The notes under the pieces were generated by a model. That model was not told the origin of the DNA and did no database searches. It saw only the letters and a program-made list of their open reading frames with translations. Below, piece by piece: positions 3,626 through 51,089 of a stretch of DNA of 56,963 bases. The translations under genes were made by a program, and so were the position numbers. Each line of letters begins with the position of its first letter. Position 1 is the first letter of the stretch. The DNA comes from a virus (Duplodnaviria; Caudoviricetes), in the IMG/VR virus record IMGVR_UViG_3300030117_006614, positions 1 to 56,963 of that record. One strand, written 5' to 3'.

Positions 3626-4828
3626 CTACGTTGTAGGGATATGGATTACCTCGGACACCCAATCTGGATAACGAACGCAATCAGGTTTCCCAACGTGCCC
3701 AACGACAATTCGCATATGCGGAGGCTTTGTTTCTGGCCACGGAGTATAACCATCCGTGAGGATAACCAGATAATCTGGTCGGTCTTTTAACTCAGCAGCA
3801 GCTTTGATACCGACACGCATATCGGTTCCGCCGCCACCATTAAAGTCCATTTGAGAAACACGTTTAACCTTTTTGATACCCTGCATTCGGGCATCGCAAA
3901 CGAGAACCGTACCGCCAGAACCGCCGCCAGCTTTTAAGCAACCCTGAACTTCTGCTAAAATAGCTGGACCGTCTCGATACATACTGCCGGACGTATCTAC
4001 TAGAACAGCTATATTTGGAATCGGGTCGATGAAGCCAGGACGCAGTAGTTTTCTCGGGTTCCAATTCTTACGGTTAGCCCGTGAGTATGTTGGGACTGAT
4101 AAACCCTTGCGATATTTTTTGAAGTTTCGGACGCTGCCCCGAAGTTTCTTTTGCCAAGGTACTTTTGGTGGCGCCAAGGTTTCTTGAGCCCAAACACGCG
4201 CACTTCCGCCTACGGAACCGGGGTCTTTTCCGGCTTGTTCCGCAACCTTTTCTGCAGTCTTGCGAATGATGATTTCTTTTTCTACCTCATCCATACCGGG
4301 CCCACCTTCCGATGGTGCTGGCAATTCATAGTCCTGCGTTTTTCCAGAAGCACCGGAACCGCAATCACCCTGACCTACTTTTCCCTGACCAGGCGGAGGT
4401 TGCGCACCGGCAGAACCTTGTTCTTGGTTTTTTGTATAGTATTCTTCCCAAGGTTTTCCTGCGCGCCAACCAAACTGTTCGGGATAAATCGCCCAATCGG
4501 GTAGAAAATCTCGAAGTTTTGCGCAGTCATTTATTTCTGCGTCCTGGCAAATGTTTGCCATTTGTGGGTCTGCGTCAATTGCTTGGGCACGTTCATGGTG
4601 CCTACGCAAAACGTGCTGCGCTTCGTGGACGATATACCCAACCTTTTCTTTGAGCGTAGACTTATTCCAAAATTCCTTGTTTACATAAACCCTTCCGTAA
4701 GGGTCGATGGCAATCGTGGATACTTTGTCGCACTCATAAAAAGTTAGACGAGAAACAATATCTGCGTACCAACCGAATTCGAATAGTGCTCGGGCACGCG
4801 CAATAGGTATTTGAAGTTTCTTATACAT
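3626..4828 (-). CDS. Putative metallopeptidase + vWA domain protein (DUF2201-like)
   Basis: HEAQH zincin motif, NICQDAEIN, DCGSG linker, MIDAS DTSGSM, GGGGTD and LTDGYTPWP. Confidence 0.9.
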   Translation of the reverse strand: MYKKLQIPIARARALFEFGWYADIVSRLTFYECDKVSTIAIDPYGRVYVNKEFWNKSTLKEKVGYIVHEAQHVLRRHHERAQAIDADPQMANICQDAEINDCAKLRDFLPDWAIYPEQFGWRAGKPWEEYYTKNQEQGSAGAQPPPGQGKVGQGDCGSGASGKTQDYELPAPSEGGPGMDEVEKEIIIRKTAEKVAEQAGKDPGSVGGSARVWAQETLAPPKVPWQKKLRGSVRNFKKYRKGLSVPTYSRANRKNWNPRKLLRPGFIDPIPNIAVLVDTSGSMYRDGPAILAEVQGCLKAGGGSGGTVLVCDARMQGIKKVKRVSQMDFNGGGGTDMRVGIKAAAELKDRPDYLVILTDGYTPWPETKPPHMRIVVGHVGKPDCVRYPDWVSEVIHIPTT

Positions 4829-9651: not shown

Positions 9652-10575
9652 ATGTCATCACCAAAAGCAGACCCTTGGATGGGCTTGATCAGAAAAGATA
9701 AAAATATAAAAGGCATGGTGCTGGATCGCGTAGACACGACGCTCTGGCATTGGGTCACGGCTTTCAATATGCGGACCCCGTATATGGAACGGAAGAATAT
9801 CCACTGCTTTGCGAATCCTCACGGCAACCGCACGATTGAGGTGATTCGGTCGTTGGTGTATCGGTGTACGCCGTTGAGGATGGCCATGTGGGATGAACGG
9901 TTGTTCGTGGCCCCGTCAGAATGGCCGGAAGAGTTTTCTTCCATCAAATCTTTTGGGCTGAAAGAGGCGCCGAGCCCATACGAGGTGGCGTGCGCGATTC
10001 TGGTGGCGCCGGAAGTCGGTTCCCGCTTCTGGGGTTTTAAGAAGTTTGAAGGGGAAGGGAAAGCGGTTGCCCATTGGTGGTTAGCGGGGATGCCGGTAGA
10101 AGCCATCCAAAAACTACTGGGGCAGAAAAAGGGACGTTGGGTATCTCTGATGGAAAACTATTTTTCTGCATTAGTTAAAAGCAGAAAGTTTAAGCTTTGG
10201 GCGCTGGGCTCGAATCCGGTTCCGGCTTGCCCGAATAGGATTACTGCTCAAATACTACAACGGGCTTTACAAGGGGAGGCGCGGAGGGGAAATGTCACTC
10301 GGGGAGAGCGTAACGCTTGGGAGCGTTTTTGGGCTCATCCCTATATCTCGACCCAGATTAAGACAGGCGTAAGGCGCTGTCCAATAGAAAGAACACTATA
10401 TCGACCGGGAGTTGTTTGGCCAAGTGTAGAAGATAAATTGGAATGGGTGTATAAAGAAGGTGGGAATCAGAAAGAATTGCGAAAAACAATCGAGTGGTTG
10501 GAAAGTCGCGTTTACAAACGCCCCAAGTGGTTGGTCCCACTAAAATTTCCGAAACAGGATATACTCGCATTATGA
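9652..10575 (+). CDS. Hypothetical protein, possible HTH regulator
   Basis: 307 aa, basic and Trp-rich. WWLAGMPVEAIQKLLGQKKG weakly resembles a sigma region-4-type HTH. Confidence 0.6.
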   Translation: MSSPKADPWMGLIRKDKNIKGMVLDRVDTTLWHWVTAFNMRTPYMERKNIHCFANPHGNRTIEVIRSLVYRCTPLRMAMWDERLFVAPSEWPEEFSSIKSFGLKEAPSPYEVACAILVAPEVGSRFWGFKKFEGEGKAVAHWWLAGMPVEAIQKLLGQKKGRWVSLMENYFSALVKSRKFKLWALGSNPVPACPNRITAQILQRALQGEARRGNVTRGERNAWERFWAHPYISTQIKTGVRRCPIERTLYRPGVVWPSVEDKLEWVYKEGGNQKELRKTIEWLESRVYKRPKWLVPLKFPKQDILAL

Positions 10576-11009: not shown

Positions 11010-11642
11010 ATGTCCGCGAACGAAGCCAAAGAAGCCCGACTTGACGCAGCCCGCGCAGCCCTTGATGACGAGGCGAAAAAGAAAACACCAAGAGTCAATC
11101 CTGGTTTTGATGTTGGCCAAGAAGCGTTTATGCAGGAAATGGAAGCGGCTGAAGCCAGAGGCGACCTGCCCCCCGTTACGGTGCGGACGCCCGAGAATAT
11201 GGGTAATTGGGATCAGTTTATCAACGACGCCGAGCCTGAAATCATACGCAGCATGGAGGGCGGTGAAACTCCAACTGAAGCCGCAAAGACTTACCGCACG
11301 ACTCTGACACGTATGGCAGATGCCAGAAAGGGGGCGCAAAATCGGCTCAGACAACTTAGTGATCAGATCGCTCCCAAGACAATCGGTTATGTAGGGCGAA
11401 GCGACCTTTCGACAATGTTTGAACTTATCGCTGATGGCAAAGTAACTCTCAACGACCCTGAGTTGCAGAAGGAAGTGCTTGAAGCCGCTACCGAGGTCAA
11501 AAAACTTTACGCAAATGAAGACAACCCCCAAGGGTATATTCCTCAACTACATGACGATATGGTGGAATCGGCGGCTGAAGAATCTGTTTGGAAAGAAGGT
11601 AAGGGCGTCATGCAAGCTGTTCATAAAGGCGAGTTGGAGTAA
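11010..11642 (+). CDS. Acidic hypothetical protein carrying the scaffold-like motif
   Basis: 210 aa, N-terminal RLDAARAAL. Confidence 0.75.
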   Translation: MSANEAKEARLDAARAALDDEAKKKTPRVNPGFDVGQEAFMQEMEAAEARGDLPPVTVRTPENMGNWDQFINDAEPEIIRSMEGGETPTEAAKTYRTTLTRMADARKGAQNRLRQLSDQIAPKTIGYVGRSDLSTMFELIADGKVTLNDPELQKEVLEAATEVKKLYANEDNPQGYIPQLHDDMVESAAEESVWKEGKGVMQAVHKGELE

Positions 11643-11645
11643 GTA

Positions 11646-11858
11646 ATGAAAAAAGAACGCATGGAAGCTGCCAAAGAAGCAGTCGAGTACGGTAAGAAAA
11701 AGAAGAAAGACTCGAAAGAAGCCTTGGATGAAGTAGCAGACAATCTAGAAGCAGCTTCCGCAAAACACAAAAAAGATTCTAAGACAGTGGCGAAGGTAGT
11801 CGGCAACATGAAAGGCGGCGGCAATCCTCACTACAAAGTTAAAACAGGGTCTTACTAG
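11646..11858 (+). CDS. Small Lys-rich protein carrying the scaffold-like motif
   Basis: 70 aa, GGAG RBS, RMEAAKEAV. Confidence 0.75.
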   Translation: MKKERMEAAKEAVEYGKKKKKDSKEALDEVADNLEAASAKHKKDSKTVAKVVGNMKGGGNPHYKVKTGSY

Positions 11859-11861
11859 TAG

Positions 11862-12791
11862 ATGGCAAACCCTAATCCAGAAAAAGTTAAAGGGCAGGTA
11901 GCCAGTAGTAAACGTCGGCACATGCTGAAACGCTATGAACCTATGGCCATGAAACCGGGTGGTTATGACCCTGACAAACCCCTTCCAGATGCGACCATTC
12001 CAGACCTGCCCCCCACATCAGCGCAGCTTGCTACTCAAATTATCCCTGATTCCGATGACTCGACTGTTGCTGCTGCGCCATGGCTTGACCCTACAATAGA
12101 AGGCAGACTTTATCCGGCCGCTGAAAATAAAAGGGCTCGTATAGAAGCAGCCAGAGCCGCAATACGGGAGTCAGAAAAGTCTGGTGTAGAGTCTGCCACG
12201 GTAGAAGCCGAACCAGTAGAAACTGAGCCTACCGAAGACTCTAAAACATATGTGAGTCCTTGGCGTCGGCCGGGAGCAGATATGGATTATCGACCATTTC
12301 CAGACGAGCATCCCGACGTAACTGTCCGAGATTTAGCCGAAGCCGATGAGCGGCAGATGGCAGAATTGGTTGAGCGGTATGGCTCTTTAGAGGGTGTTGG
12401 TAGGGCTATGCAAGCGCAAACCAAACACGGCCACGAACGCTATCTCGAAGAGATGGCTCTCGGTGGTTTTGGAAACCAGCCTTGGGAAAAAGGGCCCGGT
12501 ATTGAGGCATACGGAAAATCTGTCCAAGATGTAGGGGATGCTTTAGGCTGGGTTCCGAATCCAGTGCCCCAAGCAGTTGGCACAGGCATGTATTCTGTTG
12601 GGGCAGGAATGCAGGGTAAATGGGATGAAGTTGCTGGGGGGCTTATCGGCGCTGGCCTTGGTGCTGCGGGCAGACACGCCCTTAAACAGCTTGCAAAAGC
12701 TAAAGACTGGGGCGGGATTCGTGAGAAGTTTGGGCCCGATATAGCAGAAATAATGATCGATCAAAGCGTACAAGAAGTGGGTGAAATGTAG
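11862..12791 (+). CDS. Hypothetical protein with scaffold-like motif and C-terminal glycine zipper
   Basis: 309 aa, RIEAARAAI, VAGGLIGAGLGAAG. Confidence 0.75.
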   Translation: MANPNPEKVKGQVASSKRRHMLKRYEPMAMKPGGYDPDKPLPDATIPDLPPTSAQLATQIIPDSDDSTVAAAPWLDPTIEGRLYPAAENKRARIEAARAAIRESEKSGVESATVEAEPVETEPTEDSKTYVSPWRRPGADMDYRPFPDEHPDVTVRDLAEADERQMAELVERYGSLEGVGRAMQAQTKHGHERYLEEMALGGFGNQPWEKGPGIEAYGKSVQDVGDALGWVPNPVPQAVGTGMYSVGAGMQGKWDEVAGGLIGAGLGAAGRHALKQLAKAKDWGGIREKFGPDIAEIMIDQSVQEVGEM

Positions 12792-14467
12792 TGTCGAACC
12801 CCAATCCAGAACAGATTTTAGATTTCCTGCGGAATCCCAAAAAGTCTTTGCCTGCATTTGGGAAAGTGCATGACCAAAAAACGGGCCAGTTTGTAGGCTA
12901 TGATCCGACACGGATCACAGATACGATGCAAACGGAAATCATCGACTATCTGAGCGATACCCCACGCACTACTTATGGGCAGACCAAGTTTCTCACCATC
13001 CTCACAGCCCGTCAGATGGGTAAGTCGCTGTCGGTTGAGTACGGTTGCTACCCAAAAGCAGCGTATTCGCAGGGCTGGGACCACGTTTGTATCGCGGATA
13101 ATACAGATCGCGCTGAATACCTACATAAACGTGTTCACCATCTACATAATAAGTGGCCCGAAAGTATTCGTTCGCAGACTGTCCACTCCAGAGAAAGTAG
13201 GCAGTTGACGTTCAAGCCCGAAATGGGTGGAAAGATGCGTATTCTTTCTGCTGAGTCAGGTGCTGTGGGTATTGGCCAATCTCCAGACTCTTTTCATGCG
13301 TCTGAGTGTGCGTTTTGGGCAGACTTCTCTGGGTCGATGTTCCTGATTTGGCCTTCACTTGCAAACCGGGACCACGCACTCGCTATATTTGAGTGTACTC
13401 CTTGGGAAGCCCGTTCAGATTGGCACGAACACTGTCTCACAGCCAAAGCTGGAGAAGGTCGGCACTTATATAAGTTTTTCCCTTTCTGGGACGGGCACCT
13501 AAATAAGCGTACCTGGGAAAAAGATTGGACGCTCGACAATGAAGAGATCAACATGCTCAACAAGTACGGGCATGAGGGTTTATCATACGAGAACCTGGCT
13601 TTCCGCCGCTTCATGTTGAACACTGACCAACACTTGCGCCGCAAACCAGAGTTGTTCAACGTCTTTTATCCCTTCGATGATGTTTCTTGTTGGATCATGG
13701 CGTCAAATGCGGCCATTCCAGACCATGCACTCGAAAAACACCGGGAAAAAACGCTTGTCCCTTGGCAGGCCCCCTATCAAGAGTACGAAAAACCCGAGCC
13801 GGGTGCGGTATATGTAATCGGAGCCGATCCATGCGGCCATGCAGCCCGAGATCACGCTTCATTTCAGGTTTTGAAGTGTTTTGAAGGCGAATGGACACAA
13901 GTTGCTTGTTATGCCGAGCACTCAGACCCCTTGACCTTCACAACAAAGCTTGTTGAGACTGCATTTCGCTACAATAAGGCAAATATTGTCGTAGAATCTA
14001 ATGGTGTTGGGCAGGGTGTTCTTTCTTTGCTTCGAGATTGGAATTATCCCAACATTTTTTACGAAAAGCGCCGCAAGCCTGGATTTACCAGTACAGCAAA
14101 GTCAATTGACGAATGTGTTGGTTGGCTGATTGATGCTTTGCTCGATGAATTGGTTTTGAATGACCAAAATACAGTCGAACAACTAATGTCGTACAAAAAC
14201 GACAAAAGAATCGAAGAGGGTGCAAATTCTGAGTTGTCTCGGGGCCAACCATCCCGCAGAAGGCGGGATAGGCACCACTGGGATAAGGTTTCTGCTCTTA
14301 CAATGGCGATTGTAGGCGCTCGTCTCGCGCCCCGGCGTACTCGCCGCTCTTCGAAGCCAGAAGACAATATAATCGAGTTTAGGCCAATGACTTATGATGA
14401 ACGCACAAAGCACTACAAAGAAGTAGAGAAGCAAAAAAACAAAAAGCGCGATAAATATTGGCTGTAA
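12791..14467 (+). CDS. terL: Terminase large subunit
   Basis: Walker A ARQMGKS, Walker B FHASECAFW, coupling motif FECTP, and RNase H-like nuclease motifs IGADP, VVESNGVG, HWDKVSA. Confidence 0.95.
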   Translation: MSNPNPEQILDFLRNPKKSLPAFGKVHDQKTGQFVGYDPTRITDTMQTEIIDYLSDTPRTTYGQTKFLTILTARQMGKSLSVEYGCYPKAAYSQGWDHVCIADNTDRAEYLHKRVHHLHNKWPESIRSQTVHSRESRQLTFKPEMGGKMRILSAESGAVGIGQSPDSFHASECAFWADFSGSMFLIWPSLANRDHALAIFECTPWEARSDWHEHCLTAKAGEGRHLYKFFPFWDGHLNKRTWEKDWTLDNEEINMLNKYGHEGLSYENLAFRRFMLNTDQHLRRKPELFNVFYPFDDVSCWIMASNAAIPDHALEKHREKTLVPWQAPYQEYEKPEPGAVYVIGADPCGHAARDHASFQVLKCFEGEWTQVACYAEHSDPLTFTTKLVETAFRYNKANIVVESNGVGQGVLSLLRDWNYPNIFYEKRRKPGFTSTAKSIDECVGWLIDALLDELVLNDQNTVEQLMSYKNDKRIEEGANSELSRGQPSRRRRDRHHWDKVSALTMAIVGARLAPRRTRRSSKPEDNIIEFRPMTYDERTKHYKEVEKQKNKKRDKYWL

Positions 14468-14499
14468 TAAATGTTACACTGACCCAACCGGGAGAAATT

Positions 14500-14730
14500 A
14501 TGTTTGAAGAAGATGACATCGAACCCACCCCAGAGTTCAAGAAAAAAACCGACGAGGCAGAATCTAAACTAGCTTCGGCTATGGATAAACCGAAGAAGCC
14601 TAAAATCGGCCCAGGCACCAAGGACCCAAAAGCTACTGTCACTGTTGGTAAGATTTATACGCTCAAAGGCGCAGCCAAAGAAGCGATAGCCAACGACAAA
14701 AAGGACAAAGAAGAGGAAGAATCTGACTAA
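14500..14730 (+). CDS. Small charged hypothetical protein
   Basis: 76 aa from ATG 14500 (GGAGA RBS), AAKEAI partial motif, TAATG-coupled to portal. Confidence 0.65.
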   Translation: MFEEDDIEPTPEFKKKTDEAESKLASAMDKPKKPKIGPGTKDPKATVTVGKIYTLKGAAKEAIANDKKDKEEEESD

Positions 14731-16556
14731 TGGCTCTCGATCCAAAAACCTTAAAGTCGATCATCGCAGCACACGTCAAAAAGGCTAACAAAGAGCATAA
14801 GTCTTTTGATAAGTGGCGTGCGTGGTATCGCTCCGAGTATTGGGGCGAATACACAGATGACGAGTCTGATGGGCTTTTGGTTGAGAATAACTATCTGTAT
14901 GCCTTCACGGATACGATGGTTGCCAGCGTCACTCCCCCTACTCCGAGAGTTACTTGTGCTCCAAGAAAGCGGGATGACGAAACTGTAGAGGCTGCACAGT
15001 ATCGGGAAGCCCTGATTAACGATGTGCTGTATCGAACCAGTGCCCACGAGATTTTGTGGCGAATGGCTACGATGGCCTCTGTTTATGGTCGCTCAATCTT
15101 GAAGAGTGTTTGGAATTTCTCGAAAAAAAGTCCAGACTACCTCGTCATAGATCCCCGATACTTCTTCTATGACATGACTGTCAGCCGCTGGGAAGATATT
15201 CGGTACGCCATTGAAGTGACCACACTAACTCGGGCAGAATTCCAAGGACGCACGAATCGCCGCCAAAAGAAGCGCGGTTCAATGGAATATGACCCCGCTA
15301 TCGCTGAAAAAGCCAGTTTTGGTGCTTTTCCTAAATGGTTGAGCGATAAAGAAGAAACCACCATCAAACTTTCCGAAGATATGCGGAAAACCTTTGAATG
15401 GGTGATTGTTTACGAAGTTTATGACTTCACAAACGATCGGTACTACCACATGCTTGAAAATGAGTCCGAACCCCTGTTCGTAGGTGATTTGCCCTACACT
15501 TTTGTTCGAAACCCATTCAAGCTTCTGTCTTTCAACGAAAACTTGGCCGATATTGGCGGAATGAGTGATTCTCAGTTGGTGGAGCGGCAACAGCGGCGTC
15601 TAAACGAGTTGGATACCCTGGAGTTACGCCATGCACAATCTTCAATCCCTGTTACAGTCGTCAATGAAGCCCTATGCGACGATCCCGAAGATTTCGTCGA
15701 TCAAGTTTCTACAGCAACCAGTCCGGGAGACGTGGTTAGGCTCCGAGGCAAAAACGCGGCCCCACTCGCAGACATGTTGGGGCAAACGCCAACGTCTGCA
15801 CTCTCTCCTAGTTTTGACACGATTCGGGATCGGATTGAAAGTTCGATCCAATTTGTCTTGGGCATTCCTGACTATGCTCGCGGCCAAGCCGGATCTACGG
15901 ACGTAGCAACCGAGTTGGCGCTTGTAGATTCTGCCATGCGAACCCGCTTGGGCCGTCGAACCAAACTTATCAATGCTGTTATCGAGCATATGGCAAAAAC
16001 GGCTGTTGGTTTCTACGAAGAATACCTGACTTCTGCCGAAGAGATTCCCGTGCGCGTGGCGGGCGATGCAAACGCAAAAATCGTTGCACGCAAACACTTG
16101 ATGGCTCGCGATCCTCTGGAAGCTGACGAAGCGTTACGCAGGGGCGAGTCATTAGAAGAACCTTTAGATATTGATTACGAGGTTGTACCCTACAGCCCCA
16201 CAGAAAACTCTAAAGCAGCTCAAATCAAAAAACTTTCCCAATTCTTAGAAATCCTAATGGTGTCTGAGAATGTGGATCAAAGAAAACTAATGTCGCATCT
16301 TTTAGAGGTGTTGGACATTAGCCGCGATGTTCTTGTTTCGGAAGAACAACTCCAACAGCAGCAACTTCAACAGATGAAGGCGGCACATGCCGGACAGCAA
16401 GCTGGATCTCCCATGAATCCAGACGCTCTCGGTCCCGGTGCTCCTGGCGAAGATACGATGGCAACAGGCGGTATGCCTCCCGGTGTACCCGAAATTCCAA
16501 CAGAAGCTATCGGCGGAATGGCCGGTGGTGCAGGTTTCCCAACTCCCCAAGGATAA
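14730..16556 (+). CDS. Portal protein
   Basis: 608 aa after TerL. VYGRSILK, GIPDYARG-(x)-ATE and Q/P/G-rich tail are typical of P22-like portals. Confidence 0.88.
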   Translation: MALDPKTLKSIIAAHVKKANKEHKSFDKWRAWYRSEYWGEYTDDESDGLLVENNYLYAFTDTMVASVTPPTPRVTCAPRKRDDETVEAAQYREALINDVLYRTSAHEILWRMATMASVYGRSILKSVWNFSKKSPDYLVIDPRYFFYDMTVSRWEDIRYAIEVTTLTRAEFQGRTNRRQKKRGSMEYDPAIAEKASFGAFPKWLSDKEETTIKLSEDMRKTFEWVIVYEVYDFTNDRYYHMLENESEPLFVGDLPYTFVRNPFKLLSFNENLADIGGMSDSQLVERQQRRLNELDTLELRHAQSSIPVTVVNEALCDDPEDFVDQVSTATSPGDVVRLRGKNAAPLADMLGQTPTSALSPSFDTIRDRIESSIQFVLGIPDYARGQAGSTDVATELALVDSAMRTRLGRRTKLINAVIEHMAKTAVGFYEEYLTSAEEIPVRVAGDANAKIVARKHLMARDPLEADEALRRGESLEEPLDIDYEVVPYSPTENSKAAQIKKLSQFLEILMVSENVDQRKLMSHLLEVLDISRDVLVSEEQLQQQQLQQMKAAHAGQQAGSPMNPDALGPGAPGEDTMATGGMPPGVPEIPTEAIGGMAGGAGFPTPQG

Positions 16557-16559
16557 AAA

Positions 16560-17138
16560 ATGGCGTACCCGACACACCCAAGACACCAAGCAGCCCGCGA
16601 AGCTTTGCAATATCAAGCAGGCCAACAGCCAGCAGAATCGTTCGATCCGATGCAGAATGTTCAAAGCAAAAATTCTACGATGGGAATGGGCGAAACGCTC
16701 AGACCACCTTGGGCAGAAGAACAACCGCCAATGATGGGCGAAGAGTATTTGGCGAACCCTGCAACCCAAAAACCGCAAACGTTGTATGGCGGCGGAGCCA
16801 ATAGCGATTTTGTGGAAGGAACCGAGCCTATCTACAAACCCGGCCGAGGGCCGGCTGCTGCTGGTCCTGGCGCAATTACAATGAGCCACGAATTTAGTAT
16901 GCCACCGCGCGAACCAGCTATGGGTGATGCACCGCCTATCCAAGAAGTAGCACCCGAAGCGCCTGCACCCGAACCGGGAGGGCCAAATCTTTCCGAAAAA
17001 TCTACTGAAGAATTACAGGAAGGTCGCCGCCGTTTGATGGCCCGCATGATGGACGAACCCAGAGGCCCACAACTAGAGGCGATGCAAAAACTCGCAGATT
17101 CTATCGACCGTGAATTGTCGACGAGGCATGGGGGATAA
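16560..17138 (+). CDS. Pro/Met-rich hypothetical protein carrying the scaffold-like motif
   Basis: 192 aa, low complexity, RHQAAREAL near the N-terminus. Confidence 0.75.
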   Translation: MAYPTHPRHQAAREALQYQAGQQPAESFDPMQNVQSKNSTMGMGETLRPPWAEEQPPMMGEEYLANPATQKPQTLYGGGANSDFVEGTEPIYKPGRGPAAAGPGAITMSHEFSMPPREPAMGDAPPIQEVAPEAPAPEPGGPNLSEKSTEELQEGRRRLMARMMDEPRGPQLEAMQKLADSIDRELSTRHGG

Positions 17139-17139
17139 G

Positions 17140-17400
17140 ATGGCAGTAGACAATCCTGCGGTAGACATGGGCCTTGTAAATTGGGACGAATACAAAAACC
17201 AAGAGCAGCCCGCAGCAGCCCCAACCGCACAAGCCCCCGCTCCTGGGCAAGAGTTTCAGAATAATCAGTTACGAAAACAAAAGATTCGTAGCGCCCTGAA
17301 AGGGATGGCTGACGCCCGCTCCGCCCCCGTACAGCCTCTAATTCAATTGCCCGAATCTAAAGCACCTGGGCCAAAAGAAATAAATTTTATGGAAGCTTGA
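17140..17400 (+). CDS. Small hypothetical protein
   Basis: 86 aa from ATG 17140 (GGGGA RBS), RKQKIRSAL degenerate motif. Confidence 0.65.
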   Translation: MAVDNPAVDMGLVNWDEYKNQEQPAAAPTAQAPAPGQEFQNNQLRKQKIRSALKGMADARSAPVQPLIQLPESKAPGPKEINFMEA

Positions 17401-17402
17401 TC

Positions 17403-17783
17403 ATGCCTTTTTACACTCAAATCTGCGATGACTGCGGCACGCTTGAAGATGTGCTCCGATCTGTTTCCGAATACAAAATATGCGCTGCCTGTGGAAAACC
17501 TTGTAAGATTAAGATTGCTCCAACCCCCACCTTGGGCATTGTTTGGTCAAACGTAGAAACCAACTCACAGATTGGGCAAAAATGGGAAACCAACGCACAA
17601 AAGCGTGCTTGGTTTGAAAAGCACCCCAATGTTCGTCCAATGGAAGTTGGTAGTCCCGAAGAAAAATCTTTTCGAAATGACCTGCGAGATAAAGCAGACC
17701 AAGCCGCAAAGAAAAAAGGCTACAAAGACGTTTCCCATTTTAAGAAAGCAAACAAAGAAAGGTTAGCCAAACCGGGGTCTTGA
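17403..17783 (+). CDS. FmdB-like zinc-ribbon protein
   Basis: MPFYTQICDDCG...ICAACGK CxxC-CxxC. Common in phage head modules. Confidence 0.8.
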   Translation: MPFYTQICDDCGTLEDVLRSVSEYKICAACGKPCKIKIAPTPTLGIVWSNVETNSQIGQKWETNAQKRAWFEKHPNVRPMEVGSPEEKSFRNDLRDKADQAAKKKGYKDVSHFKKANKERLAKPGS

Positions 17784-17809
17784 CAAGGTTGCCTCTCTGC
17801 AGGTAAAAC
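17780..17809 (+). promoter_or_regulatory. Sigma70-like promoter upstream of scaffold/capsid genes
   Basis: TTGACA-18 nt-TAAAAC in an intergenic gap. Confidence 0.5.
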
Positions 17810-17832
17810 TAAAATACAAATTTGAGGCAAAT

Positions 17833-18063
17833 TTGGCTACAGAATACGATGAAATGTCTTTTGAAGATTTGATGGCTTTGTATGAGTCCAAACTTTCTGC
17901 GGCAGTGCCTCCGACAGCTTCTGAGCAAATGCCTCAAGTACAGGCTACAGAAGGCGACCAGGAAGCTACTTCAGCCGATATTGCCAACCAAAGAATCCAA
18001 GCAACACGAAATGTGTTAGCAAACAAAGTAAATAACTTTTCTCCAGAACAATCTGAGGTATAA
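17833..18063 (+). CDS. Small acidic protein carrying the scaffold-like motif
   Basis: 76 aa, GAGG RBS, TTG start, RIQATRNVL. Confidence 0.7.
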   Translation: MATEYDEMSFEDLMALYESKLSAAVPPTASEQMPQVQATEGDQEATSADIANQRIQATRNVLANKVNNFSPEQSEV

Positions 18064-18462
18064 ATGCCAGGACTTGACGACGACTCTTATATGGCAGGAG
18101 AAACTGCCACCCAAGCTGCAGAAGCTATTGACGCGGCAATTGACGAAGGAAAGAGAGGCACAGAAATTCTCTCAACACTTTTGGGCAGTGGGATGCGCGT
18201 TTATACCGACTCCGAAATGGGCGGAGAAGAAGAGCCTCCGATGGATGAGCCAATGGACGACCCCATGGGCGAACCGATGGATGAGCCTCCAATGGGAGAA
18301 GAACCTCCAATGGATGATGAGCCGGAAGGCTCTGGTATGCCCTTCGAAGGTCCACAAGAACCCAAATCAGGCAACGAAGGCGGAATGCGCGACATGCGTA
18401 TTGCCGCTGTACGTTTTGCCTTGGACAAAGACAAAGAAAATAAAGAAAAGGCGGAAGCCTAA
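18064..18462 (+). CDS. Acidic protein with (E/D)PM repeats and scaffold-like motif
   Basis: 132 aa, EEEPPMDEPMDDPMGEPMDEPPMGEEPPMDDEP, RIAAVRFAL near the C-terminus. Confidence 0.8.
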   Translation: MPGLDDDSYMAGETATQAAEAIDAAIDEGKRGTEILSTLLGSGMRVYTDSEMGGEEEPPMDEPMDDPMGEPMDEPPMGEEPPMDDEPEGSGMPFEGPQEPKSGNEGGMRDMRIAAVRFALDKDKENKEKAEA

Positions 18463-18473
18463 AAAGGAAGATT

Positions 18474-19430
18474 ATGTCTGAGATTTCGACCAGCCCCGAA
18501 GTAGAAGCCACTGACACCGCAGATGCGGGTTCGTCGGAGGCTGTACCTGTGGAGTCGAGTACCGCACCAGAACCGGTGCAAACCCAAACCGCAGATGCCC
18601 AAGGGAATTCTGCTTCATCACCAAACGTGGAGGCATCGCCCACCGAGAAACCCGAAACTGTTACACCACCTCCGTTTAATCTTGATTCTTGGGAAGGTAA
18701 TATCGATTTGCTGCCCGAGGATCTTCGTGGTCCTGTCCGTTATCTACACAAAAATCTAGAAAGCGGGTACACGAAGAAGTTTCAAACACTGGCAAACGAA
18801 CGTAAGCAATTTGAAGACGAGCGCCTTCGTTGGCAGACAGAGAAATCTGCCTGGGATGAAGGAAAATCTGAACTAGAGTCAGAACGCGATCTTCTTAAAC
18901 GAATTCTTGCGGGCTCAGAAGACCCTCGGGTCGGAGAGTTGACAACCGCCAACACAGAACTTCAAGCAAACATTGAAAAGCTGCAGGCTGACTATGACGC
19001 TTTTCAGAAAATGGTTGACGAAGATATTGAACAACAGGCGAAAGAATACGCAGATAACTTTGCGAACGCTCACCCTGAAATCTTTGAAGACGACGAAAAA
19101 CGGGCCCAATTTTCAAGTTTACTTGATAAAGAGTGGGAACCAGAAATCGCGGTCAAACTTGTTGGAGCCGATGAACGGGTAGCTGAAATGGCTACTCAGC
19201 TACGAGAACAAGGTGCTTCGCATAATCTTGCTTTTGAACATGCTCTACTAAAAGTGGGCACCTCGAAAGCAAGGCCAGCGCCTCGTCCCGGAGCGAAACT
19301 AACTGCCGGTGCTGAAAGCAAGAACAATCCCGAAAGTACCGTCGGAGACACTCTCCCTCGAACATCGAAAGATGCTCGATTTAACGCTGCCCGTGCCGCC
19401 GTTAATTGGCGAAAAGGGCAGGGTCTTTAA
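18474..19430 (+). CDS. Capsid scaffolding protein
   Basis: Acidic disordered N-terminus, GYTKKFQTLA, long coiled coil, immediately upstream of MCP. Ends RFNAARAAVNWRKGQGL. Confidence 0.85.
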   Translation: MSEISTSPEVEATDTADAGSSEAVPVESSTAPEPVQTQTADAQGNSASSPNVEASPTEKPETVTPPPFNLDSWEGNIDLLPEDLRGPVRYLHKNLESGYTKKFQTLANERKQFEDERLRWQTEKSAWDEGKSELESERDLLKRILAGSEDPRVGELTTANTELQANIEKLQADYDAFQKMVDEDIEQQAKEYADNFANAHPEIFEDDEKRAQFSSLLDKEWEPEIAVKLVGADERVAEMATQLREQGASHNLAFEHALLKVGTSKARPAPRPGAKLTAGAESKNNPESTVGDTLPRTSKDARFNAARAAVNWRKGQGL

Positions 19431-19452: not shown

Positions 19453-20565
19453 ATGCCTACAAGCGCAGATGTACTCAATTTTGCGGTAAAGAAACTAACT
19501 CCGCAGTGGCAAGAACAATTTTATCAGCACCACCCTGTTTTGGATAAGATCATCCTAAACGGAAACATTGATAAAGCACATACTGGTGCTCCATTCTTGG
19601 AATTCCCAGTTGTCACAAACGGTCCTGGTCAAGTGACTCGGATTGAAACCGGTTCTGAAGTCTACTCTTCGGTTCGTCGTACAGTCGGTAACCGTGGTCA
19701 GGTCTACTGCCCTCGGATGATCTACTCTTTCGTCATTCCCGGTAAGGATCTCGCGGAAGCTTCTGGTGAGACTGCAATCGCACGTCTTCTCAAGGTTTAC
19801 CCCGAAGCTGCTATCATGGAATTCCATGAGCACATTGTTTCACAATTTGTGAATGGTAACGGCGCTGATAACAACGTCCAAGGTTTCGTAACCCTGAACG
19901 GAAACAGCACCTACAACCCAGCAGGCTCAGACCTTACGGGTGTTTTTCAGTATGATACTATTGCGGATCAGGGCGATACGGTTTTCAACTTGACCAAAAG
20001 CGGTGCTGCTAGTGGCGCTGTTGCAGGTTGGCACAACCAATACGCAATAAGTTCTGCAGGCAATCTTCGTGAAAACTTGCGCGATGTGTACTGGCGAGCG
20101 TCAGTGGAAGGTAAGCAAGGCGGTCCCGTTGATTTGATGTTGTGTGATATTATCACCTTCAACAAATACTATGAGGATCTGGATGCGCAGGTTCGTTACG
20201 CAACTTCGTTCAAGGGTGAAACCGGAAAGCGCGGTGCGTCACGTCAGGGTCTGATGTTCCAAGAAGCGGAGTTCTATGTAGAACCTTCTCTTGATACCTC
20301 ATTGGCCTCTTTCGGTACTGACGATAAGGGTCCACGGAAGGCAGATAGTTCTTCTTGTGGTGTAACTTATATGCTCAAGACTGATACTTGGCACATGTAC
20401 ACGCTTGGTGAAGATTCCGGTATGGAAACCAAGGGTGACTTTGCAATCCGCGGACCTGTAAAGGTTCCTGGCCAAGATGCTTGGGAATGGGAAATCGTCC
20501 TGTCCATGCAGCTTTACTGTGATCGCCTCAACGCTAACGGCGTTGTTACTCAAACCGCACTTTAA
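19453..20565 (+). CDS. Major capsid protein (HK97 fold)
   Basis: 370 aa after the scaffold, strong RBS, strongly biased codon usage, capsid-like C-terminus (LYCDRLNANGVV). Confidence 0.85.
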   Translation: MPTSADVLNFAVKKLTPQWQEQFYQHHPVLDKIILNGNIDKAHTGAPFLEFPVVTNGPGQVTRIETGSEVYSSVRRTVGNRGQVYCPRMIYSFVIPGKDLAEASGETAIARLLKVYPEAAIMEFHEHIVSQFVNGNGADNNVQGFVTLNGNSTYNPAGSDLTGVFQYDTIADQGDTVFNLTKSGAASGAVAGWHNQYAISSAGNLRENLRDVYWRASVEGKQGGPVDLMLCDIITFNKYYEDLDAQVRYATSFKGETGKRGASRQGLMFQEAEFYVEPSLDTSLASFGTDDKGPRKADSSSCGVTYMLKTDTWHMYTLGEDSGMETKGDFAIRGPVKVPGQDAWEWEIVLSMQLYCDRLNANGVVTQTAL

Positions 20566-22688: not shown

Positions 22689-23225
22689 ATGCCTAGTGTT
22701 GTTTTTCCAGCACCAGACCCCTCTGCAATTTACTGGCGCAGAGAAAAAGAAAACGGCCAATTCGAAGTGGCCTCAGTCCAATCACTACAAAGATACGCCA
22801 GCGGTAGTTGGCGTGCGCTGTTTTTGGTTCCGGGGCAGGCAGCTTTCTATATCAATCAGCACAGCCCAGAACTGCAGGGCTGGGAGCCCGTGTTTGCTTT
22901 GACGGAAGATAATCTGTCTGCTGTAGTAGAACGTGTAGCCCAACGGGTTGCAGAGTTGCTGACAGAAACCGGTTCAAGCGCTTCAGAAGTTGTAGAAAAA
23001 GCGATGGAAGTCGTTGCCAAAGACACTGTAGAAGAGGCGGTGCAAACGGCTGTGGGTGCTACACAGCCCGAAGAAGATGATGGTAATGGTGATTTCTTTG
23101 TAGATAGCAACTACCAAAAAAAGAAGAAAAAGTTTGTCTGTGGTGTATGTGGTAAAAAATACGCCTACCAAAAATCCCTACAAAAGCACATTGAAAAAGA
23201 ACATGGAATGTTGGCGTTAAAGTAA
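22689..23225 (+). CDS. Protein with C-terminal classical C2H2 zinc finger
   Basis: FVCGVCGKKYAYQKSLQKHIEKEH fits F-x-C-x2-C-x3-Y-x5-L-x2-H-x4-H. Confidence 0.8.
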   Translation: MPSVVFPAPDPSAIYWRREKENGQFEVASVQSLQRYASGSWRALFLVPGQAAFYINQHSPELQGWEPVFALTEDNLSAVVERVAQRVAELLTETGSSASEVVEKAMEVVAKDTVEEAVQTAVGATQPEEDDGNGDFFVDSNYQKKKKKFVCGVCGKKYAYQKSLQKHIEKEHGMLALK

Positions 23226-27893: not shown

Positions 27894-28451
27894 GTGGGCA
27901 AAAATACAAATAAAAGATGGAAAGATAAAAAAGCCGGTATCTACAGCGATAAAAAGCAAGAACGCCTAGACAAGAAAAAAGGCAAAAAGATGGCGCGCTT
28001 GAAAAAGCGTGCGGCCCGTGGAAACGTTCTGGCCTCAAACAAGCTGGAGCGTATCCGCACAAGGGAAGCCTTAGACGAGGCGCTTGAAAATCCGATGGTG
28101 TCGGATGCCGAGGTCATGCAAAACCTCGCTTCGCAAACAGCAAATCTAGGTACGATTGCAGGGCAAGGCGCATTAGCTAATGTTCTTACTGGTCCCGAAG
28201 GCCCAAGCGAAGAAGCAATCAAAGGTCAGGTTGGGGCGATGGCCGAACCGGTTGCAGCCGGAATTGCGCACTCTACCGACACGCTAAACAAACTGCAGAT
28301 GATGAAAATACAGGATCTGCAAAACCGCATAGAAAGACAGCGGGACCGTAAGGCGCAAGAAAACGTGGCCAGCGCGCAACTTGCGATGCAAGGCGCTACA
28401 AGTGCGATGGGTGCTGGAGCAGGTCTTATGAATCCCACCACCCAGGCTTAG
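27894..28451 (+). CDS. Putative internal virion/ejection protein (small)
   Basis: 185 aa, basic N-terminus, Gly/Ala/Met-rich C-terminus. First of three genes of increasing size after the tail genes. Confidence 0.6.
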   Translation: MGKNTNKRWKDKKAGIYSDKKQERLDKKKGKKMARLKKRAARGNVLASNKLERIRTREALDEALENPMVSDAEVMQNLASQTANLGTIAGQGALANVLTGPEGPSEEAIKGQVGAMAEPVAAGIAHSTDTLNKLQMMKIQDLQNRIERQRDRKAQENVASAQLAMQGATSAMGAGAGLMNPTTQA

Positions 28452-28460
28452 GAAGTAGTC

Positions 28461-30059
28461 ATGGCAGAACCGTACAAAACCATAGGCGAAACCCGCAGAG
28501 AACGGCGGGCAGAAGAAGCAAAAAAACGTATGCCTGAGTACGCTGACGACCCCTACGCTGTTGCCTTCCCCGACATTTCTGGGCAGGAAGGTTCGACTTG
28601 GGAAGAGATTTCAGATTATCGAAAAGCGTTGAGACAAGCCCGCATGGGTGCTGTTGCTGGCTTTGTTCCCAGTAGACTGCAAGGCGCCGCTCAAGGTGCT
28701 GCAGGGGTTTTTCCTACAGGAGTTTCTTGGCAAGAACAGGGCGCGGCTCGACAAGCACTTATTGATGCTCTTGCTGCTTACGAGCAATCTGAAAATGAAT
28801 TAGAATCCCAAGGTTTGCGCCACAATTACCAAACCCGTACAGCAGAGGCGAATGAGTTGGCTACCCTGGGACGCCTGCTTCAACAAGGTATTTCATCCAC
28901 AGCTTCCGCTTCTGCTCGCAACGCTGAAATTGCCTTAAACAAAGCCTTGGGGTTTATTCAAATCAACGACAAAAGGATTGCCAACAGGGGTATGCACCAC
29001 GGCGAAATCATTAAAGGTATTGACGACGAAATGGTCAATGAAATTGGACGCTTTGTGCAGCCTGTTGCGAACGATCCAAAGGGGAGGCGCGAGCATGAGA
29101 TAGATGCAGCCAAGGCCGTACCACTCTTAAAGGCTATTGAAGACGCACTAACTGGTAACCCCAAAGTAGATGCAGCTTTTATCGAAAGAGTAGAGGCACA
29201 ACATCAACTCAACCTTGGGCAGTATTTTGGGTGGCAAGTTGACGCCAACAATCAACTTGTCCGAACAGAAGGCGCAGAGGGAAGTCTTGAAGAAGCGGCT
29301 GAAGGCATACGGGCTAGTATGGAAGGCAACTTCATGGCGGCTCAACGAGCGCGGGCTGCGATGCGGCAAGAGGACGCTAAATACGAAGAGCAAATGATGA
29401 AAGCGTTTGACGGCCTAACCAAAGCCGGTGCAGGTCTTCCAGGTTTCTTGGACCCCGTGTTTGCACGATTTACAGAATTGATGGGCCGCAAAGCCATTAA
29501 ACCCAATTCGCAAACAGCGAAAGGCCCCGGCGGGACGCTGACTGTCACAGGACAACCGGGACAAGCTGTTGCACCAGAAGGCAGCACTACAGAACAAGTC
29601 CAAACACAGACTACGCAAACAGATCGCGAACCTTCTCGGGATATGCTTAAAGAGCAATTCCAGGCACAGATTGACCACATAGATAATCCCAATCCGCCTG
29701 GAAAGGTCCTCCAAGCTAAGAATGACATTATTGATTCTGCTTTGTTCCAGGCTTTCAAACAAAACAACGAATTTGAAACAGACGATGTGGCGTATCGAGC
29801 GTTTGTGGAAGAGTCTCGCGATCGAGACAGAGAAGCCAAAGCAAAAGATACAGAAAAACTGCAGCAGCGGCGAATGGAACGCGAGGGTGGAAAAGGCAAT
29901 CTCAGAACCCGCATGGCGGAAGGTTTTGCCATGCTGCGTCCGCGATACAGAAACCGACGCTTGGCGGCGGAAACTACGGCACAAACTCCCACTCAAAACG
30001 ATAGCCCCACTGAAGATCGGGCTAAAAACCAAAAACCCGAAGACGAGGCCGGTAAGTAA
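28461..30059 (+). CDS. Putative internal virion/ejection protein (medium)
   Basis: 532 aa, helical, Ala/Gln/Glu-rich; position typical of podovirus ejectosome genes. Confidence 0.6.
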   Translation: MAEPYKTIGETRRERRAEEAKKRMPEYADDPYAVAFPDISGQEGSTWEEISDYRKALRQARMGAVAGFVPSRLQGAAQGAAGVFPTGVSWQEQGAARQALIDALAAYEQSENELESQGLRHNYQTRTAEANELATLGRLLQQGISSTASASARNAEIALNKALGFIQINDKRIANRGMHHGEIIKGIDDEMVNEIGRFVQPVANDPKGRREHEIDAAKAVPLLKAIEDALTGNPKVDAAFIERVEAQHQLNLGQYFGWQVDANNQLVRTEGAEGSLEEAAEGIRASMEGNFMAAQRARAAMRQEDAKYEEQMMKAFDGLTKAGAGLPGFLDPVFARFTELMGRKAIKPNSQTAKGPGGTLTVTGQPGQAVAPEGSTTEQVQTQTTQTDREPSRDMLKEQFQAQIDHIDNPNPPGKVLQAKNDIIDSALFQAFKQNNEFETDDVAYRAFVEESRDRDREAKAKDTEKLQQRRMEREGGKGNLRTRMAEGFAMLRPRYRNRRLAAETTAQTPTQNDSPTEDRAKNQKPEDEAGK

Positions 30060-47417: not shown

Positions 47418-48433
47418 GCTGTTACTCCTGCGGCATCGGTTGTTGCCAAAACAGTCAACGGACTATCAACCTCATTCCCCCAAACATGCCAGCCTTCACT
47501 ACGCTCTCGCGCAAACAACTCCAGTTTCAGTTGGTCTGGAAACATCTGTTCAATGCGTTCGCGCACTTCCCCAGGTTTTCGGCTGTGCTCTTGGCGTGCT
47601 GCCGATATAAATTGGCGCACGTTGCGGGCACCTCGGGGTTTTGGGATTTTACCCCGTTTGCCAATCAGACATAGTTCACATTGGCTCATGGTGTAGAAAC
47701 CGGGATTTACTTTCTGCTTATCCCACACGAAACCCACTGTAGCCCACTCAAAGCCCCAAGCTTTTAGCAACTCTATTCCTTGGTCTAAGTGGGGGCTTGT
47801 TACCCACATAAACAACAAACAATCTTGGGCAGCTAAAGAAGCTATATCCAACTTTTTTAGTTCTTTTAATGTCATGGTGGGGTAGTGTTTTTCTGCCCCT
47901 CCAGTTTCTTTGCCCCCCTTACCGTTGTGTTGTTTTTGGCCTTTGTAGTCCCACGGCGGGTCTACATACAGGATTTCAAACTTTGGGGTAAGAGGCAGGG
48001 GTATTTGTGTCCCTGCTGGCTTGGGACGCTTCGTACATACGACCCGCCAACCCCAAGTCCAATCCTCAGAGTCCACCTCTTCAACACGGGCAACCTTTGT
48101 TATGCCTGTACCCTTTTCCCCACTCCACCAGAAAACGGGCTTTCCAGCTTCAAGAGCCATATTAAGAATACGGGCTGTGGCTCTTCCAACCTTTTCTCCC
48201 GACGTAACGAAAACATCGTAAACAGGTTTCCCCGTAGTCAGGTTCTTTTTGTGGACTACGCCATGCTCCCAAGCATCCCAATCTCCCTTCCAGTTTGCAG
48301 CGTGGTCACTGCGACCTGTGCGTACACGTACAGTTCTATCTGAACGGGCTTGCAGGGTTTCTAAAAGCTGGTGAGCAGCTTCTTCGATTTCGGCAGGGGT
48401 TTCGTGGTATCCGTGTGCATAAAAAACTCGCAT
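47414..48433 (-). CDS. MT-A70-family N6-adenine methyltransferase fused to an N-terminal Rossmann-like domain
   Basis: C-terminal half: VDPPW, HYPTM, LFMWVT, WGF, HSRKP, LELFAR, WGNE. N-terminal ~135 aa: RVFYAH...GRATARILNMALEAGKPV. Confidence 0.85.
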   Translation of the reverse strand: MRVFYAHGYHETPAEIEEAAHQLLETLQARSDRTVRVRTGRSDHAANWKGDWDAWEHGVVHKKNLTTGKPVYDVFVTSGEKVGRATARILNMALEAGKPVFWWSGEKGTGITKVARVEEVDSEDWTWGWRVVCTKRPKPAGTQIPLPLTPKFEILYVDPPWDYKGQKQHNGKGGKETGGAEKHYPTMTLKELKKLDIASLAAQDCLLFMWVTSPHLDQGIELLKAWGFEWATVGFVWDKQKVNPGFYTMSQCELCLIGKRGKIPKPRGARNVRQFISAARQEHSRKPGEVRERIEQMFPDQLKLELFARERSEGWHVWGNEVDSPLTVLATTDAAGVTA

Positions 48434-50958: not shown

Positions 50959-51089
50959 CGAGCACCCCAAAAGAAGAAAAAAGAAGCAGACTATGTCCCG
51001 GCCTGCCAGCGGTGGTGCGGAGTAAAAGAAAGAAAACCGCACGGTATACAGGAAACACGGTGAAAGCGTGCAACCCGATAGGCTACTAA

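Follow-up and report, generated by a model that had tools for sequence, protein, structure and literature searches.

A scaffold-tail helix motif recurs on unrelated head-module proteins of an uncultured podovirus-like phage clade and may serve as a capsid-loading tag

How a phage chooses the proteins that travel in its capsid is known for few model phages only. The targeting tag of T4 is exclusively N-terminal; the prohead protease cuts it off, and the scaffold core is its presumed target. In phage lambda (C and Nu3) and the herpesviruses (protease and scaffold) a shared scaffold C-terminus arises from in-frame overlapping genes. Here we describe a nine-residue motif in the tail of the likely scaffolding protein encoded by IMG/VR virus record IMGVR_UViG_3300030117_006614 (Duplodnaviria; Caudoviricetes), the whole 56,963-base stretch of which is referred to below as the window. 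The motif recurs on otherwise dissimilar proteins of the head module, from which an earlier note on this DNA had proposed that a family of disordered cargo or auxiliary scaffold proteins is loaded into the procapsid by reuse of the scaffold's coat-docking helix.

Several described systems come close to this arrangement. The last 16-21 residues of the 80alpha scaffold form a helix and a hook on the N-arm helix of the capsid protein, with capsid protein and scaffold present at a ratio of 2:1; the SaPI1 protein CpmB uses the same C-terminal element, and enlarging an alanine in the helix is lethal (PMC5644958). T4 packages the ADP-ribosyltransferase Alt in its head and injects it, and enzymes of the polyvalent-protein type that are encoded beside virion genes are predicted capsid cargo (PMC5512222). 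A 2026 paper draws a parallel between cargo and scaffold proteins and suggests that procapsids might co-assemble cargo-like proteins (PMC13669383). At the locus described here, the genes for the motif-bearing proteins (hereafter carriers) belong to the syntenic head module of the phage itself and not to a satellite.

The scaffold tail motif and its copies in the window

Besides the scaffold tail, the motif is found in six proteins encoded around the genes for the large terminase (TerL), portal and scaffold (Table 1). All seven 9-mers lie where the earlier note had placed them, on the + strand. The pattern it gave, R-h-x-A-A-[RK]-x-A-h (h, hydrophobic), fits four of these, but RHQAAREAL has histidine in place of the hydrophobic residue, and RIQATRNVL and RIAAVRFAL break the A-A pair. 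With H also allowed at the second position, a strict pattern, R-x-x-A-A-[RK]-x-A-h, has five matches across the six reading frames of the window, each within a head-module gene. When residues were shuffled within the 69 open reading frames (ORFs; 18,197 residues), globally or in blocks of 30 or 15 residues, 0.008-0.009 copies were expected and none of 5000 shuffles reached five. A looser pattern covering all seven copies, defined post hoc, was expected 0.10-0.11 times, and again none of 5000 shuffles reached seven. The suspected enrichment over a background of shuffled composition is thus borne out (five strict copies against 0.009 expected).

The likeness lies in the peptides. As had been observed, the DNA beneath them is no repeat: among the seven 27-mers a mean of 14.7 of 27 bases is shared, with an identity of 0.66 at codon positions 1 and 2. 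A repeat at the DNA level was rejected on an identity of 0.30 at the third position. A minus-strand AARAAL at 19399 was also discarded, being simply the complementary reading of the scaffold motif.

For comparison, 96 loci (designated by L numbers) were gathered from viral contigs using portal, major capsid protein (MCP) and terminase queries, with terminase identities of 52-99%. The tail motif is kept in the scaffolds of these relatives: the residues R302, A305, A306, A309 and W312 do not vary among 13 scaffolds of ~45% identity, and all 37 complete homologues, down to 23% identity (range 23-100%), end in R(or Y)-x-x-A-[AVS]-x-x-A-[FLIVMY], with the motif lying within the last ~20 residues. 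The AlphaFold2 model of the scaffold, based on 13 sequences, has a predicted local distance difference test score (pLDDT) of 73.4 and comprises a disordered acidic N-terminus, a long helical hairpin (helices 82-146 and 151-199), a flexible linker (pLDDT below 50 at residues 279-292) and a C-terminal helix (298-315) that contains the motif. On such a helix, A4, A5 and A8 of the motif would form a small-residue face, flanked by R1 and a basic residue at position 6 or 7, and this suggests a surface suited to tight packing against another helix. Two other parts of the scaffold are also invariant, namely the N-terminus (M1, T6, S7 and P8, within residues 1-8) and a PRP...GA...NNP.S patch at residues 270-288, just ahead of the linker; both are possible further interaction sites.

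None of the motif-bearing proteins of the window matches a Pfam or PHROG family. Orthologues of ORF 11646 keep the motif, as RIKAAKEAV (L003 and L011) or RMAAAKEAV (L004 and L022), and proteins at the position of ORF 17833, which itself has one of the looser copies, carry RLQAARSAL (L016), TLDAARAAL (L017-L019) or RVEAARRAL (L015). The family of ORF 16560 aligns as an N-terminal AAR.A island, a variable middle and a conserved C-terminal domain. The acidic protein encoded immediately ahead of the scaffold gene (the pre-scaffold protein) has a conserved small helical N-terminal domain, a variable acidic linker and a C-terminal motif helix, with G107, R109, A115, V116, R117, F118 and D123 invariant in 10 sequences (G..R.....AVRF....D). 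Its AlphaFold2 model has helices at 13-27 and 32-41, pLDDT of ~50 over residues 50-105 and a helix at 106-131 with pLDDT 85-87; in both this protein and the scaffold, therefore, the motif sits in a confident helix that follows a low-confidence linker. An overlapping ORF at 18074-18481 was rejected as a real gene, orthologues supporting the frame 18064-18462.

Three degenerate copies had also been put forward. LKGAAKEAI is credible because the same slot holds KKEAAREAI in L009 and KTIAAREAL in L005 and L008, whereas RKQKIRSAL and EQGAARQAL look like probable chance matches: the ORF of the former has no homologue among the loci, and the latter has no above-threshold counterpart in loci reaching that far downstream.

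Spread of the motif and enzyme carriers among relatives

The head module is syntenic across the relatives. Its conserved genes encode a 307-residue protein, a candidate small terminase (TerS), TerL, portal, a zinc-ribbon protein, the pre-scaffold protein, scaffold and MCP, and highly variable genes fill the slots between them. To follow the motif through these slots, a position matrix was built from 30 distinct scaffold tails alone and used to scan 1147 non-scaffold proteins (273,797 residues) from 81 loci, the window included, with expected counts taken from 20 shuffles. At scores of at least 12 there are 65 sites against 2.9 expected, at 14 or above 43 against 0.7, and at 18 or above 14 against 0.1. 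Of the 65 sites, 63 belong to the structural strand, and conserved genes, those for TerL, portal and MCP included, contain none; all but two fall in the variable slots bounded by the genes for candidate TerS and scaffold. With near-duplicate loci removed, the sites represent 57 distinct proteins, 52 distinct 9-mers and 41 of the 81 loci, and they fall into 40 BLAST homology groups, so that the motif travels independently of the protein that bears it. Most copies are near a protein terminus, as had been claimed for the window: 51 of the 65 are within 25 residues of one, 28 at the N-terminus and 23 at the C-terminus, with 14 internal.

Control proteins from the same loci give the same picture. 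In 18 loci with complete modules, 17 of 81 slot proteins contain a site scoring at least 12, against 1 of 187 proteins encoded outside. The six-residue core, A[AV]..A[LIVMFY], is present in the first 40 residues of 69/248 slot, 13/463 outside and 9/295 conserved proteins, and in the last 40 residues of 51/248, 6/463 and 8/295, respectively. An earlier matrix, derived from the seven window copies, had found 46 sites against 3.3 expected in 18 relatives, and sites in 51 of 131 in-module against 2 of 138 outside proteins, the in-module count including the seven seeds and the scaffolds. Within families, the motif forms a conserved island beside variable linkers.

Scaffold and carriers also vary together. 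Where position 7 of the scaffold motif is R, K or N, the same holds for 33 of 36 carrier motifs in the same locus, and scaffolds with A or E there are accompanied by A or E in 8 of 12 carriers. In L039, L044 and L045 the scaffolds have A-V at positions 4-5, and this variant reappears in their carriers, an acetyltransferase included (see below). This co-variation is not an artefact of the search, since one matrix served all loci, and it fits a common binding partner.

Some of the carriers are recognisable enzymes. Proteins with the ART-PolyVal domain, an ADP-ribosyltransferase (ART), occupy three head-module slots in relatives (Table 1); those of L008, L009 and L040 match PF18760 at 71.9-82.9 bits against a cut-off of 31.2 (Pfam E 8.3e-21 for L040). 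Comparison of five distinct ART proteins with complete N-termini located a version of the motif within the first part of each, although in one it is degenerate. A GNAT acetyltransferase in L044 and L045 carries RRSAVCHAI at residues 10-18. A Pfam scan of 40 carriers and slot proteins from relatives returned as matches the ART in L040 and the GNAT proteins in L044 and L045, and amongst 53 larger motif-bearing slot proteins four have an ART domain and two a GNAT domain. One slot protein, L051:2047-5328 (1094 residues, no Pfam family), has the motif at both ends (residues 10 and 1059).

According to Pfam, no protein of the window has an ART-PolyVal or GNAT domain. The slot of ORF 11862 does, however, hold the ART-PolyVal proteins in L008 and L009, and ORF 11862 has marginal local similarity to the L009 protein (E 5e-4) and none to that of L008. 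In a protein atlas, all scores for ORFs 11862 and 11010 were below 0.9 and serve as leads only; the named clusters nearest to ORF 11862 are of polyvalent-protein and P22 gp16 type, at 0.81-0.87, a level often reached by chance.

Table 1. Coordinates of motif copies, head-module genes and enzyme carriers (window positions unless a locus is named)
Feature	Position	Strand	Remarks
RLDAARAAL	11037-11063	+	strict copy; residue 10 of 210, ORF 11010-11642
RMEAAKEAV	11658-11684	+	strict copy; residue 5 of 70, ORF 11646-11858
RIEAARAAI	12138-12164	+	strict copy; residue 93 of 309 (internal), ORF 11862-12791
LKGAAKEAI	14662-14688	+	degenerate; ORF 14458-14730; stronger copies in same slot of relatives
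RHQAAREAL	16581-16607	+	H at second position; residue 8 of 192, ORF 16560-17138
RKQKIRSAL	17272-17298		degenerate; scaffold-derived matrix score -1.3
RIQATRNVL	17992-18018	+	looser copy; residue 54 of 76, ORF 17833-18063
RIAAVRFAL	18397-18423	+	looser copy; residue 112 of 132, ORF 18064-18462
RFNAARAAV	19377-19403	+	strict copy; scaffold C-terminal motif, residues 302-310 of 318
EQGAARQAL	28734-28760		degenerate; scaffold-derived matrix score 5.2
307-residue protein	9652-10575	+	precedes candidate TerS; conserved across clade
Candidate small terminase, ~144 residues	10572-11006	+	conserved, upstream of variable slot; a guess, without family match
Carrier, 210 residues	11010-11642	+	RLDAARAAL; scaffold-tail matrix score 15.6
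Carrier, 70 residues, Lys-rich	11646-11858	+	RMEAAKEAV; motif kept in orthologues
Carrier, 309 residues	11862-12791	+	RIEAARAAI; directly upstream of TerL
Large terminase	12791-14467	+	weak PHROG terminase matches; bounds two variable carrier slots
90-residue protein	14458-14730	+	between TerL and portal; LKGAAKEAI, then Lys/Asp/Glu-rich run
Portal protein	14730-16556	+	PHROG 332 (E 7.8e-14), PHROG 156 (E 1e-12); bounds carrier slots
Carrier, 192 residues	16560-17138	+	after portal; RHQAAREAL; scaffold-tail matrix score 20.1
Zinc-ribbon protein, 128 residues	17397-17783	+	between portal and scaffold; conserved head-module member in 37 loci
Carrier, 76 residues	17833-18063	+	RIQATRNVL; same-position proteins of relatives carry motif near C-terminus
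Pre-scaffold acidic protein, 132 residues	18064-18462	+	RIAAVRFAL; alignment of 10 sequences and AlphaFold2
Likely scaffolding protein, 318 residues	18474-19430	+	between portal and MCP; ends 22 bases before MCP start
Major capsid protein	19453-20565	+	candidate motif receptor; PHROG 9953 major head protein (E 1.1e-7)
ART-PolyVal, upstream of TerL	L008:2312-4165		YEGAVQEAL at residue 15
ART-PolyVal, upstream of TerL	L009:1232-2278
ART-PolyVal, between TerL and portal	L040:3941-5077; also L041		L040: RQAAVTRAL at residue 27
ART-PolyVal, after portal	L072:12345-13907		REEAARKAL at residue 11
ART-PolyVal, after portal	L073:9782-11350		SLEAARKAL at residue 9
Fifth of five distinct ART proteins			YLKVASEAL at residue 7, degenerate
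GNAT acetyltransferase, 158 residues	L044:3849-4322; also L045		TerL-portal slot; 28.2 bits against cut-off 20.7

The window is a complete linear viral record (CheckV completeness estimate 100%) with its structural arm on the + strand and its replication genes on the - strand. Homology provided names for three genes of the motif region, those for TerL, portal and MCP; tblastn aligned TerL with annotated large terminase subunits (20-22% identity, E 2e-14 at best). The zinc-ribbon protein matches Pfam Zn_ribbon_8 and zf_C2H2_13, both below cut-off. Further along the structural arm, a 178-residue protein (22689-23225, +) ends in a classical C2H2 zinc-finger-like F.C..C.......L..H....H. This ending is conserved in its syntenic counterpart in every relative seen, an unusual trait for a gene of the virion module, and the protein's only match is a weak PHROG of unknown function. 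Two likely ejection proteins are followed by a giant ORF of 2509 residues (30059-37588, +) with no Pfam family at E ≤ 0.001 and one sub-threshold motif-like site, RLEEARAAA, at residue 1090. The replication arm encodes a family A DNA polymerase, an SNF2 helicase, a VapE/DUF5906 protein and an MT-A70 methyltransferase. The polymerase (48433-51042, -) has a 3'-5' exonuclease and is fused N-terminally to a uracil-DNA glycosylase superfamily domain.

Docking partner, mechanism and alternative explanations

That the scaffold's tail helix recurs on many unrelated neighbouring proteins, enzymes among them, makes it probable that it is a shared address tag for capsid loading. The motif itself, its enrichment, conservation, modular spread, helical context and co-variation are matters of observation, and we lean, on balance, towards viewing it as a portable procapsid-docking tag copied from the coat-binding helix of the scaffold. 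In this scheme, R-x-x-A-A-x-x-A-h would be a short amphipathic helix that docks the scaffold inside the assembling procapsid, most probably on the MCP, and copies of the same helix would have spread to a shifting assortment of proteins, at either terminus or, more rarely, internally. Through it, the carriers would occupy scaffold docking sites and be built into the procapsid; if docking sites outnumber scaffold molecules, tethered motif proteins could fill the free sites and be enclosed. Expansion would then change the docking site and release scaffold and passengers from the wall, the scaffold leaving and the passengers staying or leaving according to size and charge. The passengers of the window would be six to seven small, largely disordered proteins, whilst the ART and GNAT passengers of the relatives would enter the host with the DNA. 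The fuller claim, that in this uncultured podovirus-like clade the docking helix has become a terminus-independent loading tag such that any gene acquiring the nine residues has its product packed and delivered, seems to us finely balanced, tipping slightly towards doubt.

The MCP is put forward as receptor mainly by analogy with the precedents described above. Prediction of a complex between the MCP and scaffold residues 255-318, using alignments of 12 MCP and 13 scaffold-tail sequences, scored 0.53 (0.49, 0.55 and 0.53 in separate runs), whereas the highest of three controls scored 0.00. At least 55% of contacts are common to the runs, the partner pLDDT is 49-50, and no interface is reported. 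Of 80 solved complexes 58 pass the score mark applied, as do 2 of 110 mismatched pairs, but passes at 0.60 or under account for only 7 of the 80 solved complexes and for both of the passing mismatches; as self-built alignments were used here, these counts hold only roughly. The docking on the MCP that the earlier note had proposed thus receives weak support, for the scaffold tail. The MCP N-arm (M[PA]T[SN]ADVLNFA) does not vary among 12 relatives, but across 31 MCPs its conservation (0.72 for residues 1-15, against 0.18-0.83 elsewhere) is not above the protein average, so that it gives no extra support for a docking site there.

A shared assembly tag need not bind the MCP. The receptor might instead be the portal, the scaffold body or the zinc-ribbon protein, which could act as an adaptor for the motif; on the scaffold body, carriers would become part of a scaffold core during assembly, in the manner suggested for the T4 targeting sequence. 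An alanine-rich face would allow packing against any partner that offers a helix, and the scaffold itself contains long ones (82-199); carrier genes are concentrated near that for portal, the zinc-ribbon protein is conserved in 37 loci, and the MCP prediction is itself weak. We nevertheless consider a different receptor unlikely, in view of the separation between that prediction and its controls and of the position of the scaffold motif, which lies at the extreme C-terminus behind a flexible linker, where the 80alpha scaffold binds coat protein (PMC5644958). Less likely still, the carriers would act as assembly chaperones and as auxiliary or competing scaffolds, leaving as DNA enters, with nothing delivered to the host. 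This would agree with the small size and disorder of many window carriers, and with the most conserved of them, the pre-scaffold protein, being encoded beside the scaffold gene across the clade and being strongly acidic, like an expelled scaffold; CpmB of SaPI1 provides a precedent for a second protein with the scaffold's tail (PMC5644958). It would leave unexplained, however, both the tags on ART and GNAT proteins and the variability of carriers between close relatives, which amounts to 40 homology groups. The cargo and auxiliary-scaffold explanations may both be true, for different carriers.

Two further explanations fare worse. The abundance of copies near the N-terminus recalls T4-type propeptides and might mark the motif as a recognition or cleavage signal for a prohead protease, as in the head propeptides of T4 and giant phages, but PHROGs and Pfam found no prohead protease family in the head module, the tag is as frequent at C-termini and no conserved residue pattern was seen after it, making such a role very improbable. 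(The only peptidase-like gene found, for a DUF2201 putative metallopeptidase with a VWA-like domain, is in the replication arm at 3626-4828 on the - strand, far from the head module.) Slightly less credible again is the absence of any common function, with the copies reflecting chance in Ala/Arg-rich helices or the remnants of duplicated gene fragments. The carriers are indeed rich in Ala, Arg, Glu and Lys, and RKQKIRSAL and EQGAARQAL do look accidental, but composition-preserving shuffles, even those confined to 15 residues, never reach the observed counts, the control proteins of the same loci rarely have the motif, and orthologues keep it while their flanks diverge. Third codon positions are not conserved either, and on these controls both chance and paralogy can be set aside.

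Several points weigh against a portable docking tag. The binding partner, and the encapsidation, retention and delivery of the carriers, are steps that we infer, and the complex prediction covers the scaffold tail alone. The scaffold owes its name to position and architecture, because it has no Pfam or PHROG match and Foldseek of its model finds no PDB match at E ≤ 0.001 (and, in BFVD, just two unnamed homologues). Not all slot proteins are carriers, some sites are internal, and 7 of the 18 complete modules have no non-scaffold site scoring at least 10 on the strict matrix, although some of these show copies with a looser one. The likely ejection or core proteins encoded at 27894-37588, which would be expected to be packaged, have no significant copy. 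Co-variation rests mainly on one deep clade split and so represents few independent events, and with 47 of the 53 larger carriers lacking a Pfam domain, the term effector is justified for few. Finally, tblastn with MCP and portal found no match among 50,697 deposited phage genomes, for which reason the lineage is described as uncultured. On computational grounds, the core of the earlier proposal, a peptide motif common to the scaffold tail and to unrelated head-module proteins that would serve procapsid loading, is nevertheless backed from several independent directions.

Comparison with known systems

The earlier note knew of no such system. This was too broad, in that the T4 capsid targeting sequence, P1 DarB, the 80alpha scaffold and CpmB and the encapsulin peptides are close analogues, but in the literature covered, which included few subscription journals, we found no phage whose scaffold-tail motif sits on many unrelated phage-encoded proteins at either terminus. 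With 80alpha and SaPI1 the likeness extends to a second protein bearing the scaffold's amphipathic C-terminal helix (for the same capsid N-arm site there), to a small alanine in the helix (essential there) and to a scaffold that is otherwise disordered or flexible (PMC5644958). CpmB differs in being a single, satellite-encoded mimic that redirects capsid size and has a motif with an RIIK hook (PMC5644958). Here there are many phage-encoded carriers, enzymes included, with the tag at either terminus and no sequence likeness to that motif.

The capsid targeting sequence of T4 is likewise a short peptide that takes variable internal proteins into the prohead and can carry foreign proteins (PMC9024508, PMC5512222), and an ADP-ribosyltransferase is among the proteins packaged and injected (PMC5512222). 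A short peptide common to unrelated head-associated proteins is found here too, on seven window proteins and in 40 homology groups of relatives. Its placement is unlike that of T4: copies occur at both ends of proteins as well as internally, the module has no recognised protease to remove them, and the tag is that of the scaffold's own tail. In P1, anti-defence proteins are loaded by a short terminal signal, as for DarB, with DarA-Hdf pairs on the inner capsid wall; there, the signal is known for one protein, loading is stepwise via other Dar proteins, and the available text reports no link to a scaffold tail (PMC9024508).

Encapsulins load diverse enzymes into an HK97-fold shell by means of short terminal peptides behind flexible linkers (PMC13669383). 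The N-terminal motifs of the ART-PolyVal and GNAT proteins correspond to such terminal tags on enzymes, and the disordered linkers beside the motif helix in the scaffold and pre-scaffold models match the encapsulin linkers. Encapsulins are without portal, DNA or scaffold, and a tag that is the scaffold's tail motif within one virus goes unreported in the available text of that paper (PMC13669383); the window, for its part, has TerL, portal, tail genes and replication genes, not a DNA-free shell. In engineered P22 particles, cargo enters the procapsid via the coat-binding end of the scaffold, but these are man-made and use a large fused part of the scaffold (PMC9962691), as opposed to a natural nine-residue core. 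Finally, the arrangement here differs from lambda C and Nu3 in that the carriers are separate genes, as the divergence of the 27-mers at third codon positions makes plain.

If the motif is indeed a loading tag, nine residues matching the scaffold tail would provide a readable rule for predicting packaged effectors from sequence in an abundant uncultured lineage, and would account for the great variability of the gene slots around terminase and portal. They would give the clade a rapidly evolving set of exchangeable effectors (ADP-ribosyltransferases, acetyltransferases and disordered proteins), and could be used as a very short natural tag for placing foreign proteins in capsid-like particles. 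Cargo and scaffold sharing one HK97-fold docking site would be a natural case of the parallel already proposed (PMC13669383), and would link phage scaffolds in nature to the cargo loading of encapsulins. The principle that a short peptide loads proteins into a capsid is known from the systems above; the novel part is the use of the scaffold's own tail motif on many proteins of the same phage.

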